Source: a virus. Taken from it: a stretch of DNA of 24,468 nt. Positions 6,289-12,603 of the stretch are shown here, piece by piece; position 1 is the stretch's first letter, and every line of letters starts with the position of its first letter. The notes beneath the pieces were generated by a model. The model was not told the origin of the DNA. It was given only the letters and a program-made list of their open reading frames with translations, and did no database searches. Where the stretch lies: the UHGV virus genome UHGV-0060065, one strand, 5' to 3'. The position numbers were made by a program, and so were the translations under genes.

Positions 6289-9111
6289 ATGACGGCAGAG
6301 TACATCAGGGACTGGCAACAACCGCGCCACGCAGTGGGGCGTGAAGGAACGGGGATCCCCGCTCCTGAATCCGCGCTTTCCTCCTGGCTGGATGCCTACC
6401 GGGCAGAGAACGAGCGCCGCCAGGAAATGGCTGATGCGGCGTTCTCCGCCACGCCGCTGGGCAACCTGATTAATAAAAGCCTGGACGCACAGGAAAAACA
6501 GGACAAAACCATCACACTGGCAGGAGACGCCAGAAAACAGGCACGCGGCGCGGTGGATGAAGCCATGGCCTCGCTGCGCCTGCTGCCGTCCTATCTGCGC
6601 GATCCGCTTATTCGCCACCTCTCCTTCCTTCGCAAAAAACAGGAAGCCGATCGCCGGAAAGGCAAAAAGAGCTGGCAGGCGGAACGCTATGCACGCGGAA
6701 CCCTGCGCAAAATATTCGAACGTCTGGATCGCACTGACGGACGCTGGCTGACACCGGGTTATCGCTCCCTTGCCGGACGCGAACGCCTGGACGATTTGCT
6801 TTACCTGCCGCAGCTCAACAAACACCAGATACAGACGCTGGCCACCATGACGGCAGCGATGTTCAGCAGCACCTTCGAAAAACTCTGCGATGGCTTTGGC
6901 GCGACTGATGGCGAACTGACCATGGATGTAACGCTGAAGGCGTATCAGATGCTGGCCCGCATGGCGTTACACCTGCACGCCATGCCTCCACATTATGACG
7001 CACTGACAACAGACAAAGACCGGAGGAACGAACCGGACACAGAGCTGCTGCCGGGCGCAATCCTTCGCCTGACCTGTGCGGAATGGTGGAAACGCAAACT
7101 GTGGCTGTTACGTTGCGAGTGGAGAGAAGAACAACTCCGCGCCGCCTGTCTGGTTTCCAGAAAAACATCGCCCTATCTGAGCCAGGACGCGTTAAGCGAG
7201 TTTCGCGCACAGCGCGAGAAAACACGCGATTTCCTGAAAAGTTTCATGCTGGAAAACGAAGACGGGTTCACGATTGATCTCGAGACAGTGTATTACGCGG
7301 GAGTAAGTAACCCGGTTCACCGTAAGGCAGAAATGATGGCCACCATGAAGGGACTGGAACTTCTGGCCGAAGCCCGTGGCGACAGAGCGGTGTTTCTGAC
7401 TGTCACCTGCCCGTCAAAATACCACGCAACAACGGAGAACGGTCATCCGAACCCCAAATGGAACGGGGCCACCATGCGCGACTCCAGCGATTACCTGGTT
7501 AACACGTTTTTTGCGGCGGTCCGCAAAAAACTGAACCGCGACGGCCTGCGCTGGTATGGCATCCGCACGGTGGAGCCTCACCATGACGGCACCGTGCACT
7601 GGCATATGATGGTCTTTGCTCATCCGGAAGAAATCGACAGCATCGTGGCCATCACCCGCGATATTGCCATTCAGGAAGACCGCCACGAGCTGGGCAATGA
7701 TATTACTCCGCGCTTTAAGGTGGAGTATGTCGACGGCTCAAAAGGCACACCAACCAGCTATATCGCGACCTACATCGGAAAAAACCTGGACAGCCGCGCC
7801 GTGGATGGCATCGACCCGAAAACGGGCAAGCCACGCGTTGACCACGAAACCGGAAAATCAATGGCCGAGAGCGTGGAGCGCGCCATCGGCTGGGCGCGTC
7901 TTCACCGGGTCCGCCAGTTCCAGTTCTTTGGCATCCCCTCCCGTCAGGTATGGCGTGAACTCCGCCGCCTTGCCAGCCAGATGGCACGCAACCCGGAAGG
8001 CCCGCAACGGCTGAAGGATGATGCAATGGATGCGGTACTCGCTGCCGCTGATGCCGGGTGTTTTGCCACCTACATTGAAAAACAGGGTGGCGTACTTGTT
8101 CCACGCAAGGACTACCTGATTCGCACAGCCTACGACCTCGCAGATGAGCTGAACGATTACGGCGAACAGAGTGTACAGATTTACGGGATCTGGTCGCCAC
8201 TCATCGGGGAATCCTCCCGTGTGTGCACGCACCCGGATAACTGGAAGCTGGTAAGACGTAAACCGGAAGCGGAAGACAGCACCCACGAAAATGGTTTTGA
8301 CCTTCAGGGCGGCCCTGCCGCCCCTTGGACTCGTGGCAATAACTGTCCCCGTGTACAGGAAACGGACAACAACGGGACAGAACAGCCGGAAGAACGGCCA
8401 GCACCGTGGCCGCAGCTCCCTGACGGCGTTGAAGTGAACGAATGGATGCGCTCACTGAAACGGCACGAACGCCGGGCGCTGATGCGTTCGCTTCGTGACA
8501 AACAGGCAAAAAACAGCAGCGATGAAATGCAGAGCTGGACACAGAGCCGCAAACAGCAGCGGCCTTTGCCTGATAACCACGAATTACTCGCTAAAGAATG
8601 GCGGGAGTCTGCCGAATCTCTCGGCCTGCATATCGGTGAACAGCAGATGCAGCACCTGTTACGGGGCGGCAGCCTGTACGTTGACGGCAGCATCATTGCA
8701 CCGCAGGGGTTTGAAATTGTACGCAAACCGGATACCCGACCGGACAGCCGGATCACGCAGCTCTGGCAGCGCCTGAGCCGTAACCACGGCGTAAGCAGCA
8801 CGGAGATCCGCCATAACCCGGTCGCAAGCTATCTGGAACAGCTGGGGGCATCAGACCCCGAAGCCGCCGCACGCCTGGCATCCACACTTCAGCAAGACCA
8901 GAACACCATGAAAACACCCGTTACCGTGCTTTCTGACATGCTGCGTGCCATCCGCGACGCAGAGCACGCACAGAGAATCAGTGAAACCACTGAACGCGCC
9001 CGCCGCAAAGCAGACCTGCTGCGGGGTGGCCTGACCATTGGAAACAAAAAACAGACAGAAACGGGATTCACAAATCCCGTAAATGAGCAAAAAACGCGCC
9101 GCGATATATGA
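6289..9111 (+). CDS. A: Rolling-circle replication initiator (P2 gpA-like HUH endonuclease), 940 aa
   Basis: HUH motif (GTVHWHMMVFAH) and paired catalytic tyrosines (TSYIATYIGKN) are present, and the position matches P2 gene A. It is longer than I recall P2 A to be (about 760 aa), with a long C-terminal extension. Confidence 0.88.
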   Translation: MTAEYIRDWQQPRHAVGREGTGIPAPESALSSWLDAYRAENERRQEMADAAFSATPLGNLINKSLDAQEKQDKTITLAGDARKQARGAVDEAMASLRLLPSYLRDPLIRHLSFLRKKQEADRRKGKKSWQAERYARGTLRKIFERLDRTDGRWLTPGYRSLAGRERLDDLLYLPQLNKHQIQTLATMTAAMFSSTFEKLCDGFGATDGELTMDVTLKAYQMLARMALHLHAMPPHYDALTTDKDRRNEPDTELLPGAILRLTCAEWWKRKLWLLRCEWREEQLRAACLVSRKTSPYLSQDALSEFRAQREKTRDFLKSFMLENEDGFTIDLETVYYAGVSNPVHRKAEMMATMKGLELLAEARGDRAVFLTVTCPSKYHATTENGHPNPKWNGATMRDSSDYLVNTFFAAVRKKLNRDGLRWYGIRTVEPHHDGTVHWHMMVFAHPEEIDSIVAITRDIAIQEDRHELGNDITPRFKVEYVDGSKGTPTSYIATYIGKNLDSRAVDGIDPKTGKPRVDHETGKSMAESVERAIGWARLHRVRQFQFFGIPSRQVWRELRRLASQMARNPEGPQRLKDDAMDAVLAAADAGCFATYIEKQGGVLVPRKDYLIRTAYDLADELNDYGEQSVQIYGIWSPLIGESSRVCTHPDNWKLVRRKPEAEDSTHENGFDLQGGPAAPWTRGNNCPRVQETDNNGTEQPEERPAPWPQLPDGVEVNEWMRSLKRHERRALMRSLRDKQAKNSSDEMQSWTQSRKQQRPLPDNHELLAKEWRESAESLGLHIGEQQMQHLLRGGSLYVDGSIIAPQGFEIVRKPDTRPDSRITQLWQRLSRNHGVSSTEIRHNPVASYLEQLGASDPEAAARLASTLQQDQNTMKTPVTVLSDMLRAIRDAEHAQRISETTERARRKADLLRGGLTIGNKKQTETGFTNPVNEQKTRRDI

Positions 9112-9156
9112 AGCGCGCATAAAACAGGCAAAAACGGGATTTCAGAATCCCGTAAA
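9059..9156. repeat. Two 25-bp near-identical direct repeats, each an 8-4-8 palindrome (ACGGGATT-N4-AATCCCGT); candidate parC/operator
   Basis: Copy 1 (about 9059-9083) lies in the last codons of A. Copy 2 (about 9132-9156) lies in the A-parM intergenic region about 30 bp upstream of the parM RBS. The copies match at 21 of 25 positions and start 73 bp apart. Confidence 0.5.
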
Positions 9157-9187
9157 CGATTAATTAATCAACATAAGGAAAAGCGAC

Positions 9188-10147
9188 ATGAAAATTTGTA
9201 TCGACGACGGCTCCACCAACATCAAGCTGGCATGGACTGAGAACGGCGAACGCCGCAACGCCATCAGCCCGAACAGCTTCAAGTCGGAATGGTCTGCGCC
9301 GTTCGGTGGCACGCAGCCCGCGAACTACATGCTTGATGGCGTGCGCTATGGTTTTGATCCGGTCAGCGATCGCTTTGTCCAGACGACCGACACGCAATAC
9401 CAGTACAGCGATGTGAATGTCATTGCCATTCATCACGCGCTGGTCAAATCAGGCATCACGCCACAGGAGGTGGATGTGGTTGTCACCCTGCCACTGAGCG
9501 AGTATTTCGACACAAACGCACAGCCGGACATGGCCAACATCAACCGCAAAAAAGCGAACGTTATGCGTCCGGTGGAGTACCAGAACGGCGAAGCATTCAC
9601 TATCCGTAACGTGCGGGTTATGCCTGAATCCATTCCGGCTGGCTTTAAGGCACTGGCTGACATGAGTCCGTTTGAATCCCTGCTGATTGTGGATTTGGGC
9701 GGAACCACGCTGGATGTGGCAAAGGTTCAGGGACAACTGGCAGGTATCAGCCAGGTGTTTTGCGATCCACACGTAGGCGTTTCCCTGATGGCCGATGCCG
9801 TACTGTCGGTGATGGCCACTAACGGTATGCGTACCAGTCACCACATCGCCAACACCATTATCGAACATCGCCATGATGAAGCCTGGCTGCGCCAGCACAT
9901 CCACAATGGCGCGCATTACGACAGCCTGATGGCGGTTATTCGTGAAAAGGAAGAGACACTGAAACAACGCGTGATCCGCGCGCTGGCGGTTTTTTCGGGT
10001 TACGGGCGGGTGATGGTTGTAGGTGGAGGAGCAGAGATTGTGGCACCCGCTATCCGCGAAGCCTGCGGAGTTAATGCGACTTTCATCGCGGACGGGGTGC
10101 CACAGTTTGCTCTGGTTAATGGGCTGTACGCAATGGACAAGGAGTAA
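9188..10147 (+). CDS. parM: Actin-like segregation ATPase ParM/StbA family
   Basis: The translation matches remembered plasmid R1 ParM along its whole length (MKICIDDGSTNIKLAW, ISPNSFK, QYSDVNV, HHAL, VMPESIPAG, LLIVDLGGTTLD, VMVVGGGAE, LVNGLYAM). RBS AAGGAAAAG. Confidence 0.85.
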   Translation: MKICIDDGSTNIKLAWTENGERRNAISPNSFKSEWSAPFGGTQPANYMLDGVRYGFDPVSDRFVQTTDTQYQYSDVNVIAIHHALVKSGITPQEVDVVVTLPLSEYFDTNAQPDMANINRKKANVMRPVEYQNGEAFTIRNVRVMPESIPAGFKALADMSPFESLLIVDLGGTTLDVAKVQGQLAGISQVFCDPHVGVSLMADAVLSVMATNGMRTSHHIANTIIEHRHDEAWLRQHIHNGAHYDSLMAVIREKEETLKQRVIRALAVFSGYGRVMVVGGGAEIVAPAIREACGVNATFIADGVPQFALVNGLYAMDKE

Positions 10148-10151
10148 ACCA

Positions 10152-10463
10152 ATGACGACACCAACCAGACGGATAAGTTTCTATCTGAAGCCCGCCGCCG
10201 TCAAGAACGAAGGCGAAGCATGCGCCTGGCTGGACAGCCTTACACCAGAAGCCCGCAAAAACGGCCAACGTGTGGCTTTTCTGGCCGGGCTGGCACTTCT
10301 GAAAATGAATCCGGCAGAGGCTTACCGACTGGCTGCATGGGCTGACGATGAGGCGTTGTCGGTGACACAAACCAGGACAGAACGCCCCGCGTCACAGCCA
10401 GTATCAACCGCACAGATAACCAGTCAGATGGCCGGAAATATCCGGGCGTTATTTCCCGAATAA
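10152..10463 (+). CDS. parR: ParR/StbB-like ribbon-helix-helix centromere-binding protein (103 aa)
   Basis: An AAGGAG RBS sits 7 nt upstream of the ATG at 10152, which lies 5 nt after the parM stop. The N-terminus (RRISFYLKP...LDSLTPEARKNGQRVAFLAGLALL) and C-terminus (NIRALFPE) resemble R1 ParR. The ORF-track entry 10023..10463 includes a spurious N-terminal extension overlapping parM. Confidence 0.6.
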   Translation: MTTPTRRISFYLKPAAVKNEGEACAWLDSLTPEARKNGQRVAFLAGLALLKMNPAEAYRLAAWADDEALSVTQTRTERPASQPVSTAQITSQMAGNIRALFPE

Positions 10464-10468
10464 CACAA

Positions 10469-10492
10469 CATCAGGGCGCATCCGCCCTGATG
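10469..10492 (+). terminator. Hairpin after parR (CATCAGGGCG-CATC-CGCCCTGATG), terminator-like with a weak U-tract
   Basis: Perfect 10-bp inverted repeat with a 4-nt loop, 6 nt after the parR stop. The following T-tract is poor (ACTTTAAT). Confidence 0.35.
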
Positions 10493-10526
10493 ACTTTAAT
10501 CCGGGAACATAAACAAGGGGGACACA

Positions 10527-10862
10527 ATGCAACACATTGACAGAGAAAAAGCGCAGCGACTGATTGAGCGAATGGAAGCGCTGGCGAAAGAAGAAAATGT
10601 CAGCATCCAAAAAATAGCTGAATGTGGCCAGATAGTTCTTCGTCGTGAAAAAGACATCAAGCAACTGATGTCTGGCGAAATCAGCAAAACATGGACTTCA
10701 GGCAAGAAGACGATTTATTGCAGCTTCTGCAATAAATCCCAGCACAAAGTCATAAAGGTGATTGCCGGACCGTCTGTTTACATCTGCAATGAGTGCGTGG
10801 ATTTGTGCAATGAAATTATCAAGGGAGAAGTGACAGACCATGAAGAAAAAACGCATGAATGA
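10527..10862 (+). CDS. Small protein with a C-terminal ClpX-type C4 zinc-binding domain (zf-C4_ClpX-like), 111 aa
   Basis: Residues about 73-106 ([36 protein letters not shown]) are nearly identical to the E. coli ClpX N-terminal zinc-binding domain ([36 protein letters not shown]), with all four Cys conserved. The preceding 60 aa are unrelated to ClpX. Strong RBS (AAGGGGGA). Confidence 0.75.
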
Positions 10863-11447: not shown

Positions 11448-11619
11448 GCAAAATTGACTATCAGGCATTACGCGAGGCGGCACAAAACTATCAATCGACG
11501 CTGGCGTGGTATGAGGTTGACGCGGGCTAGTTTTGCCGCAAGGATAATTCGTTTCAGCGGGTGATTTTTTGCGCTATCATTCCGGCAGTGGTTCACGATT
11601 ATTGGCAGGAAAGGCAATT

Positions 11620-12213
11620 ATGAGCAGTAAAAAAAATAAAATAACATCTATGGCCGCAGCGCTGGCGGTGGCTCTCGCCCCTGTTCCTGCCAGTAGCATT
11701 GTGCATCATGACTTATCAATCTCCCGGCACAGTACGTCTACGCTATCCCTCCAGGACGTAAAGGATTCTGTGGCATACCTTCCTATTGATGAGGCCACCA
11801 GTTATATGCTTAACCTGGCTGATAGGATGAAGACACACAGGGCAAACCTTCGCATCGAATGGGAAGAAAAGCAGATCCCTATTATTCTGAAAAATCAGAA
11901 AAAAGAGACTCAGGAAGGGTTTGAAAGCCTTTTCCGTCATATTGCGGTATGTGCAAGTTTTGTCGAGGCTGCAAGGGTTGCGCTGAAAAGCGTACCTGAA
12001 AGTAACGCGGAACTGAGAAAAGAGATTGTCGCTTTTGCTCGTTCCGCTGCGACGCTCCGCTATACGATTGAAGATATTTTATCCTTCATTGAAAGCACGC
12101 ATGTGCCGAAGAAAACTTCAGATGCTGATCTGGGTGTTACCGCCGATCAGGTTCGCGCACTTATCCGCAGTGAACATAAAAAGCTGGGCCTTAAAGATCC
12201 AACGTTCCATTAA
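11620..12213 (+). CDS. Hypothetical protein (198 aa) with hydrophobic Ala-rich N-terminus; candidate partner/antitoxin of the downstream YafO-like toxin
   Basis: The internal ATG at 11620 has an AGGAAAGG RBS; the ORF track starts earlier at 11569. The N-terminus (MSSKKNKITSMAAALAVALAPVPASS) is signal-peptide-like. It ends 9 nt before the toxin start. Confidence 0.5.
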   Translation: MSSKKNKITSMAAALAVALAPVPASSIVHHDLSISRHSTSTLSLQDVKDSVAYLPIDEATSYMLNLADRMKTHRANLRIEWEEKQIPIILKNQKKETQEGFESLFRHIAVCASFVEAARVALKSVPESNAELRKEIVAFARSAATLRYTIEDILSFIESTHVPKKTSDADLGVTADQVRALIRSEHKKLGLKDPTFH

Positions 12214-12222
12214 GGCAGGGCC

Positions 12223-12603
12223 ATGATTAAAGTCTCTGTCCACAATGACATAGAACTCCCCGCAGTTGCTCGTAAATATGCACATGCTTTGCAGTCATGG
12301 AAAAACGGCGGATCTTTACCCTCAGTCTTTGGCAACGAAGGGCAGTGGGAAGATAGCGGGCGTCTTCGTGATTCTTTTGTTTTTAAGATTCACATTCGTT
12401 TACCTGATGAACAGCCGTGGCCTGCAAAGCTACCTGCCGCCTCGCGTAAATCAAACAGTTATCTTGTTTACTCCCGCCATTTCTTATATCCAGATAAGTA
12501 TCAGCTAATCAGCATTATGACACCCAATGCGCATGAGTTAGCCCGTACATCCTACATGGCAGAAATTGAGCGCAGAGCAGAAGAGTTCCAGTCTTCTTTT
12601 TGA
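12223..12603 (+). CDS. YafO-like toxin (type II TA, ribosome-dependent mRNA interferase family), 126 aa
   Basis: Similar length to E. coli YafO, with shared motifs: GSLPSVFG vs GVLPDIFG, KIHIRLP vs HIHLANE, SYLVYSRHF vs AHLVYCQGAF, LISIMTPNAHELAR vs LIAILKPEPHKLAR, and the AEEF C-terminus. The alignment is from memory. Confidence 0.6.
   Translation: MIKVSVHNDIELPAVARKYAHALQSWKNGGSLPSVFGNEGQWEDSGRLRDSFVFKIHIRLPDEQPWPAKLPAASRKSNSYLVYSRHFLYPDKYQLISIMTPNAHELARTSYMAEIERRAEEFQSSF

Follow-up and report, generated by a model that had tools for sequence, protein, structure and literature searches.

The SXT/R391 integrative and conjugative elements carry srpMRC, a type II partition system with four repeats of 13 bp, direct as well as inverted, as its centromere, which is expressed only together with the excision/transfer regulon, stabilises the excised form of the element and has been found to stabilise a test plasmid (PMC4489591). 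In the Corynebacterium prophage CGP3, the AlpC/AlpA/alpS system is reported to be needed for efficient replication and transport of phage DNA (PMC4446434, PMC5539076). Here we analyse a comparable locus in the virus genome UHGV-0060065, a stretch of 24,468 nucleotides (hereafter the window) that DNA searches assigned to the P2 family of temperate phages (P88-like, genus Xuanwuvirus, family Peduoviridae). Downstream of the replication gene A, it holds parM (encoding an actin-like ATPase), parR (encoding a putative adaptor) and, ahead of parM, two palindromes. The best explanation overall, which we regard as probable though by a limited degree, is that this region is a phage-adapted type II (ParMRC-type) partition locus that acts on a circular extrachromosomal phage genome.

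The identification of the two genes is correct and already in public annotation, hence not new: RefSeq labels the pair as ParM and "plasmid partitioning/stability family protein", and the PHROG families of both are named "partition protein". In the literature we found no study of this cassette, its sole trace being a table entry for ORF35 of phage phiSM, a gene given only as a possible fitness factor (PMC6456863). The main text of a 2025 paper on genome-encoded ParMs is without prophages or phages (PMC12270681), and no description was found of the cis site or of the synteny of A, parM and parR across genera. By its sequence, we place the cassette in the type II partition family, as an uncharacterised member whose centromere candidate is minimal and atypical and whose host element is unusual.

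The ParM/ParR pair

Positions 9188-10463 almost certainly encode a ParM/ParR pair. The product of parM (9188-10147, plus strand; 319 amino acids) is matched end to end by the Pfam domains StbA_N (1.8e-82) and ParM C-terminal domain (1.7e-68); it also matches the partition protein family phrog_691 (1.6e-90). The sequences of the R1 ParM crystal structure (PDB 1mwk) match it over the full length (E 4.5e-92), at 47% identity to R1 ParM, so that the "clear ParM homologue" of the preliminary description passes a profile search. Its phosphate-binding, catalytic and adenosine motifs (IDDGST, MPESIPAG, DLGGTT, GGGAE) are intact, and the protein is the full-length actin-like ATPase with complete nucleotide-binding motifs that characterises type II partition. 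Diversity was computed from 75 P88-like sequences (74 loci and the window); in parM it is 0.006 at codon positions 1+2 and 0.062 at 4-fold sites, i.e., 10-fold lower at the former, which points to clear purifying selection on ParM and thus to a gene that is in use rather than decaying.

The parR gene (10152-10463, plus strand; 103 amino acids) starts 4 nt past the parM stop codon. Its product matches PF10784 (2.2e-24) and phrog_2515; R1 ParR itself belongs to PF10784 (2.6e-30), and a profile comparison with hhalign relates the N-terminal domains of the two proteins with 97.5% probability. The ParR-like partner proposed earlier can therefore be placed in the R1 ParR family, as a small adaptor directly 3' of parM with the PF10784 N-terminal DNA-binding domain that is usual in type II systems. 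In an alignment of phage ParR alleles, the N-terminal domain (residues 1-65) is conserved, the linker at 66-95 is hypervariable, and the protein ends in a tail, NIRALFPE, that is again conserved. Its motif N-x-x-x-L-F-P is found in all phage alleles, in the ParRs of other P2-like lineages and in the ParR of an IncL plasmid, and is only partly kept in those of R1 and phage D6. In R1 ParR, the corresponding C-terminal part docks on ParM.

The AlphaFold monomer of ParR (predicted local distance difference test, pLDDT, 55.7) was too poor for a fold assignment; its helices at residues 20-61 are compatible with a ribbon-helix-helix protein and the N-terminal strand was unmodelled. A PDB sequence search with ParR gave no match, and tblastn of ParR against plasmids returned only the same prophage, in records labelled as plasmids. 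Escherichia ParR occurs in many alleles, from 96% down to about 50% identity, which agree in the first ~18 codons, in the N-terminal domain and in the final 8 residues, whereas the linker is almost unalignable. Many genomes align with the window no further than about 10206, and a breakpoint of recombination within parR is therefore suggested.

Candidate ParR sites upstream of parM

Ahead of parM lie two perfect 8-4-8 palindromes, palindrome 1 at 9061-9080 (ACGGGATTCACAAATCCCGT, i.e., ACGGGATT-CACA-AATCCCGT) and palindrome 2 at 9134-9153 (ACGGGATTTCAGAATCCCGT, i.e., ACGGGATT-TCAG-AATCCCGT), the starts of which are 73 bp apart. Flanks of the form AA...AAA extend both to a 25-bp repeat, exactly as had been described, and a repeat search placed them within a longer, 42-nt direct repeat of 81% identity. 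Repeat unit 1 (9045-9086, no strand assigned) consists of an A-rich flank and palindrome 1 with the core GGG-N10-CCC at 9063-9078; repeat unit 2 (9118-9159, likewise without strand) consists of the flank CAGGCAAAAA and palindrome 2 with its core at 9136-9151. The central spacer between them (9087-9117, no strand) holds the stop codon of gene A and is the least conserved part in the alignment with a Hafnia relative. Palindrome 1 lies 10-17 codons ahead of that stop codon, and 34 nt separate the end of palindrome 2 from the parM ATG at 9188, which agrees with the earlier placement of one repeat in the last codons of A and the other about 30 bp upstream of parM. The interval 9160-9187 (plus strand) contains a ATTAATCAA box (9163-9171) and the parM Shine-Dalgarno sequence AAGGA (9175-9179), a stretch that is conserved between the window and the sequences from Hafnia, Plesiomonas and Salmonella. 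The most invariant upstream stretch is the A-rich sequence at 9045-9060, left of palindrome 1 (CAAAAAACAGACAGAA; diversity 0.003, 2 of 16 sites variable), which in the population sample is more conserved than the palindrome arms.

With up to three mismatches allowed, the two palindromes are the sole matches in the 24.5-kb window (chance expectation 0.09), none of 100 shuffled windows contained two or more, and the complete 35.8-kb genome of P88 holds no additional copy; the search for further copies that the preliminary description had suggested thus ended with these two. The pair is strictly linked to parM. When 2.9 million viral contigs were searched for two copies of GGGATT-N4-AATCCC at a distance of 45-70 nt, the double core was found in 93 stretches, and a ParM hit was present in 91 of the 92 that were checked; in 89 of these 91, parM starts 37 nt downstream of the double core. 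The single stretch without ParM is a derivative in which parM has been deleted after about 16 codons. Two deletion derivatives of this kind, one from IMG/VR (L162 6300-6700) and one from E. coli E54 (hit H99), retain both palindromes and the first ~16 codons of parM, behind which unrelated phage sequence follows; in E54 this sequence carries the annotation of a terminase domain protein.

Outside the P88-like phages, the nearest ParMs (54-62% identical) belong to P2-like prophages of Hafnia, Plesiomonas, Serratia and Enterobacter, in all of which parM has gene A on one side and the portal/terminase genes on the other, with a gene for a PF10784 protein coming next after parM. Every lineage whose ParR starts with TRR(I/V)SFYL has two GGG-N10-CCC dyads: relative to the parM start they lie at -125 and -52 in the window, at -124 and -51 in a first Hafnia lineage and at -128 and -55 in a second (spacing 73 bp in each), and at -131 and -59 in Plesiomonas (spacing 72 bp). 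Across these four lineages ParM identity falls to 62%, and in the second Hafnia lineage and in Plesiomonas the identity over the 140 nt upstream is down to about 60%; in 20,000 shuffles per lineage, a pair with the dyad spacing occurred at a frequency of <=0.0001. A chance origin of the two palindromes, or a neutral duplication without function, would agree with the diversity of the arms in P88-like phages, which equals that of synonymous sites; we nevertheless find it hardly credible, given the low chance expectation in the window and the persistence of the 72-73-bp two-dyad layout (at most 1 in 10,000 shuffles per lineage) where the surrounding DNA is only about 60% identical.

The Serratia/Enterobacter site is an inverted repeat with 20-nt arms, GGGAACGA(A/T)ATAGAAAAAT, 26-28 nt apart, and the flank CAAAAACGGGA is common to its left side and to unit 2 of the window. 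In the loci of this clade (L190 3880-3945, L191 3883-3950, L195 and L196) the inverted repeat encloses a short GC-rich palindrome. A plus-strand GGGA at -117 to -131 is present in all six lineages compared, and in a k-mer count across lineages, dominated by A-rich words, GGGA/TCCC is the sole G/C-rich 4-mer found in all, a result that is weak evidence when taken alone. The upstream repeats differ where the ParR beta-strand differs: they are of the TCTCA type in D6 and the locus L198, A/C-rich 11-mers in R1 and GTATTTTTC 10-mers in IncL. The two conserved, parM-linked dyads may correspond to the repeated cis elements beside parM that are expected of a type II system. On these comparisons we consider the dyads likely candidates for ParR sites, and the palindromes upstream of parM the best candidate for a centromere.

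The layout of the site is not that of a canonical parC. Autocorrelation of the phage region gave z 0.7 at 11 bp and detected only the 73-bp repeat (z 6.1), whereas R1 gave z 4.8 at 11 bp and IncL z 4.8 at 10 bp; the two arrays of tandem 10-11-bp direct iterons of an R1-type parC are not present. A reading of the 42-nt units as degenerate R1-like 11-bp iterons was rejected for the same absence of a 10-11-bp periodicity. No sigma-70-like promoter was found in 8700-10700 at a threshold of 9/12 matches, and at a relaxed threshold of 8/12 none was found at any conserved position in eight lineages, although an atypical promoter is still possible; in these scans the candidate centromere is therefore without the autoregulated parMR promoter of the R1 type. 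Thus, of the reading as a ParR site, the part that stands is that the palindromes are linked to the cassette, are conserved in distant lineages and fit a ParR site, and the part that fails is the claim of the expected operator/centromere layout.

In the window, the stem of each palindrome folds at -10.7 kcal/mol (z about -4), and both are terminator-like on the minus strand, with an 8-bp stem followed by a T-run. It might be that the palindromes act as nucleic-acid hairpins, i.e., as antisense terminators of the minus strand or as stabilising or processing stem-loops in an A-parM mRNA. The minus-strand terminator-like score, however, stems from the A-rich left flanks, and the plus strand has no U-run. 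In the Hafnia and Plesiomonas lineages the stability drops to -7.1 and then to -3.3 to -4.9 kcal/mol, all that survives in the distant lineages being the triplets GGG and CCC, a constant 10 nt apart. Since stem stability is not conserved, a role as hairpin is unlikely. Of the common variants, those at palindrome 1 disrupt pairing on one strand and those at palindrome 2 on the opposite one. Nor is there a gene on the minus strand that runs into the site, and the cassette already ends in another hairpin (10469-10492); with these points added, we regard the hairpin explanation as improbable. A search for an RNA element among G-U-compatible variants likewise gave no support, the variants pointing to opposite strands at the two sites.

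Cassette borders and gene A

Gene A (6289-9111, plus strand) encodes a replication protein of 940 amino acids (Phage_GPA, 1.6e-130), of which the Pfam domain covers residues 179-503 only. In the cassette-less strain cS51a, A is 96.7% identical over residues 1-911 and then diverges completely, and DNA homology between the window and cS51a stops at about 8995; the last ~29 codons of A are thus cassette DNA through which the A frame reads. The stretch 8996-9044 (plus strand), which is defined by this alignment break as the left cassette junction and encodes the non-conserved tail of A, has a diversity of 0.048, which is about neutral. Towards the right, many relatives cease to be homologous at 10463-10492, the place of a GC-rich hairpin (10469-10492; no strand assigned) with a perfect 10-bp stem and a 4-nt loop that is terminator-like mainly on the minus strand. 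These two breaks delimit the module to about 8996-10492.

That the cassette overlaps the end of gene A, as first described, is true, and the overlap is incidental, the palindromes belonging by these alignments to the cassette and not to gene A. In relatives, too, the dyads are routinely read through by upstream open reading frames (ORFs; L008 2917-2936, L187 3453-3961, L189 3868-3897): in one Hafnia relative the stop codon of A falls within the loop of palindrome 1, and in another Hafnia lineage an extra ORF of 167 amino acids spans dyad 1 and stops within dyad 2. The cis site thus dictates how these upstream proteins end at their C-terminus. The preliminary description had also considered the repeats as binding sites for the extended C-terminus of A, and they could equally be bound by another phage or host protein instead of ParR, with palindrome 1 inside the A frame and the A protein of this clade being long relative to its Pfam domain. 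Against this, the 6.1-kb locus of cS51a (gene A and flanks) contains no palindrome despite the near-identical A protein, the Hafnia lineage with the extra ORF has its sites in that ORF and not in A, and the sites always accompany parMR. Binding by A itself is contradicted by these comparisons, and the explanation as a whole appears very improbable.

No plus-strand terminator was found between A and parM, and same-strand extra ORFs lie between the two genes in two lineages. Together with the absence of a detectable promoter, this suggests that parMR forms the distal part of the early (replication) operon, and co-transcription with A is the most likely arrangement.

Host element and prevalence

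The cassette region (8900-10600) is 98% identical to phages P88 and PhiR44_2, and was matched in 1366 of 5426 complete E. coli genomes (about 25%), a single genome holding as many as three copies; of 1537 E. coli copies in total, 1535 lie on a chromosome. It was also found in Salmonella, E. albertii, Citrobacter (phage phiSM), Cronobacter and Hafnia. The preliminary description had called the cassette unexpected in a P2-like phage; this does not hold, since it is standard in P88-like phages, annotated as such, carried by about a quarter of E. coli genomes and syntenic in four other genera. A scan of genome contigs with the ParM of the window returned three near-identical loci only, and scans of viral sequences with the Hafnia and Plesiomonas ParMs gave almost no matches. 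One contig labelled "Vagococcus sp.", a Gram-positive genus (L003, NZ_JBQPOM010000071.1), encodes a ParM that shares 97% identity with the gene of the E. coli prophage, most likely because of contamination or a mislabelled assembly.

One circular E. coli record of 34,461 bp that is labelled as a plasmid (NZ_CP148288.1, L185) is a complete P88-like phage with integrase, repressor, A, parMR and structural genes. It indicates that a circular form can be assembled and does not imply stable plasmid maintenance; it is either the assembled form of an excised or induced phage, or a rare episomal state.

In the window, an integrase (440-1471) and a C-type repressor (1502-1801) are encoded on the minus strand. 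Directly 3' of the cassette, at 10527-10862 (plus strand), lies a gene for a ClpX-type C4 zinc finger protein of 111 amino acids (PF06689, 3.1e-17; phrog_6797), the product of which is named, oddly, "carboxylate-amine ligase" in the P88 record. Further downstream, in the cargo region ahead of the portal gene, an ORF for a YafO-family toxin (12223-12603, plus strand; PF13957, 2.3e-27) is preceded by an ORF of 214 amino acids without family match (11569-12213, plus strand), which could be its toxin-antitoxin partner. In two of the Serratia/Enterobacter prophages the cargo 3' of parR is different (HicAB in Serratia, L190; a KAP NTPase in Enterobacter, L191).

The position of the cassette at the opening of this variable cargo region between A and the portal gene, beside toxin-like and accessory genes, raises the question of whether parMR, although a real pair, is passenger cargo whose task is not the segregation of the phage DNA itself. 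It might cause interference or incompatibility with plasmids or superinfecting phages that share the site, or act on the host chromosome from its place of integration, or ParR might be mainly a transcription factor. Such roles would accord with the chromosomal location of nearly all copies, with the report of genome-encoded ParMs that have unknown, non-plasmid roles (PMC12270681) and with the designation of the phiSM gene as only a possible fitness factor (PMC6456863). However, the place and direction of the cassette, unlike those of the neighbouring cargo, are constant in five genera, and one Hafnia phage has nothing else between A and the portal gene. In a PADLOC search, ParM, ParR and six neighbouring ORFs all lacked a match to known defence families, and ParR has no close plasmid relatives and hence no obvious plasmid target. 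We therefore consider the passenger explanation unlikely, though the most serious of the alternatives.

Discussion

We favour the explanation as a type II partition locus of the phage itself. In this model, the region 8996-10492 would be a self-contained type II module, by now a stable component in one subfamily of temperate P2-like phages. ParM would be the filament-forming actin-like ATPase, and ParR the adaptor, its N-terminal domain (of the R1 ParR family) predicted to bind DNA and its C-terminal tail to bind ParM; the pair of GGG-N10-CCC dyads would be the cis site. Arc, CopG and the ParR of pSK41 bind as dimers of dimers on half-sites about one helical turn apart, and by analogy each dyad probably binds a ParR dimer of dimers (a tetramer). 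Since 73 bp correspond to about seven helical turns, the two dyads are on the same face of the DNA, where they may display the ParR tails and cap a ParM filament. As part of the early operon, parMR would be expressed while the genome is a free circle, i.e., following infection or excision or in the course of P2-type replication. Sister circles could then be pushed apart by ParM filaments that carry ParR-DNA complexes as caps, so that replicating genomes are spread, or each of the two daughter cells receives a copy ahead of integration or lysis. The benefit may be either the inheritance of an unintegrated copy or the spacing of replicating circles.

Several observations weigh against this model. 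As 1535 of the 1537 copies are chromosomal, stable episomal carriage is at best rare, and the circular record NZ_CP148288.1 may be merely induced phage DNA. Unlike the parC sites of R1 and IncL, the site consists of two units only and lacks a 10-11-bp iteron periodicity, and a classical operator role is unsupported, no promoter having been found. The ribbon-helix-helix fold of ParR is unconfirmed by the AlphaFold monomer with its low confidence (pLDDT 55.7). In a census of 77 P88-like sequences, which were gathered via ParR and not via the motif, the spacing is 73 bp in 73, and both palindromes are perfect in only 18, the frequent variants (GGGACT, GCGGG, AATCCT) being uncompensated; the arms have a diversity of 0.058 vs. 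0.062 at synonymous sites, i.e., no extra conservation. This sample of arms is too shallow to inform either way, the useful signal coming from the distant lineages only. In one of these, the Serratia/Enterobacter clade (ParR start NRKISFYL), the site is rearranged into one large inverted repeat. Finally, ParR binding and the biological role are drawn from sequence comparison and analogy, and a practical limit on the significance of the locus is that its genes had already been annotated and its function is deduced in this way. Taking all this together, we see about an even chance that the cassette acts on extrachromosomal phage DNA.

More tentatively, and with somewhat more doubt than confidence, we suggest that a ParMRC system with a minimal, two-dyad centromere has long been selected in one of the commonest prophage families of E. 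coli, and in its relatives from at least four further genera, because integrating P2-like phages have an important plasmid-like phase. Such a phase might consist in heritable carriage as an episome, either ahead of integration or once the phage has been excised, or in a filament-driven spacing of monomeric circles for P2-type packaging. If this is true, an ordinary coliphage of the integrating kind would make use of a bacterial actin in its normal life cycle. Type II partition is textbook plasmid machinery, and it is encountered here as a conserved, selected and syntenic module of integrating P2-like phages. Because roughly a quarter of complete E. coli genomes carry the cassette, prophage-borne ParM may rank among the commonest ParM genes in E. 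coli. The comparative work also yields a precise, testable candidate for the cis site (two GGG-N10-CCC dyads, 72-73 bp apart), and the cassette bears on the blurred border between prophages, phage-plasmids and integrative elements.

Among the known systems, ParMRC of plasmids R1/R100 (StbA/StbB) is alike in the order of site, parM and parR and in the 4-nt gap between the genes. The likeness extends to ParM, 47% identical over the full length, to ParR, which belongs to the same Pfam family (97.5% probability for the N-terminal domain), and to the repeated cis elements, which are arranged in two groups upstream of parM. The cis sites themselves are different: parC of R1 consists of two arrays of five 11-bp direct iterons around a promoter (z 4.8), whereas the phage has two isolated 20-bp palindromes without 11-bp periodicity (z 0.7) and without a promoter that we could find. 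The DNA-facing beta-strand residues of the two ParRs differ as well, and the host replicon is an integrating phage here and a plasmid in the case of R1.

SrpMRC resembles the phage cassette as a type II partition system on a normally integrated element, with a centromere of few short repeats. In contrast, SrpM and SrpR are only distantly related to the phage proteins, SrpR lacks a recognisable domain according to PMC4489591, and the SXT/R391 element is conjugative and not a phage; stabilisation by SrpMRC was shown by experiment, whereas the phage cassette is known here from its sequence alone. The AlpC/AlpA/alpS system of CGP3 is likewise carried by an integrated prophage and combines an actin-like filament protein, a DNA-binding adaptor and cis sites, but its actin-like family is not close to ParM, its host is Gram-positive and its site sequences are unrelated. 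The sole further ParM homologue among deposited phages (48% identical, followed by a ParR) is that of D6, a P1-like plasmid prophage, and the annotators of D6 had already remarked on the similarity to StbA of P88. This phage is unlike the P88-like phages in its TCTCA-type upstream repeats and in the beta-strand of its ParR, and in that D6 lives as a plasmid and so needs partition.

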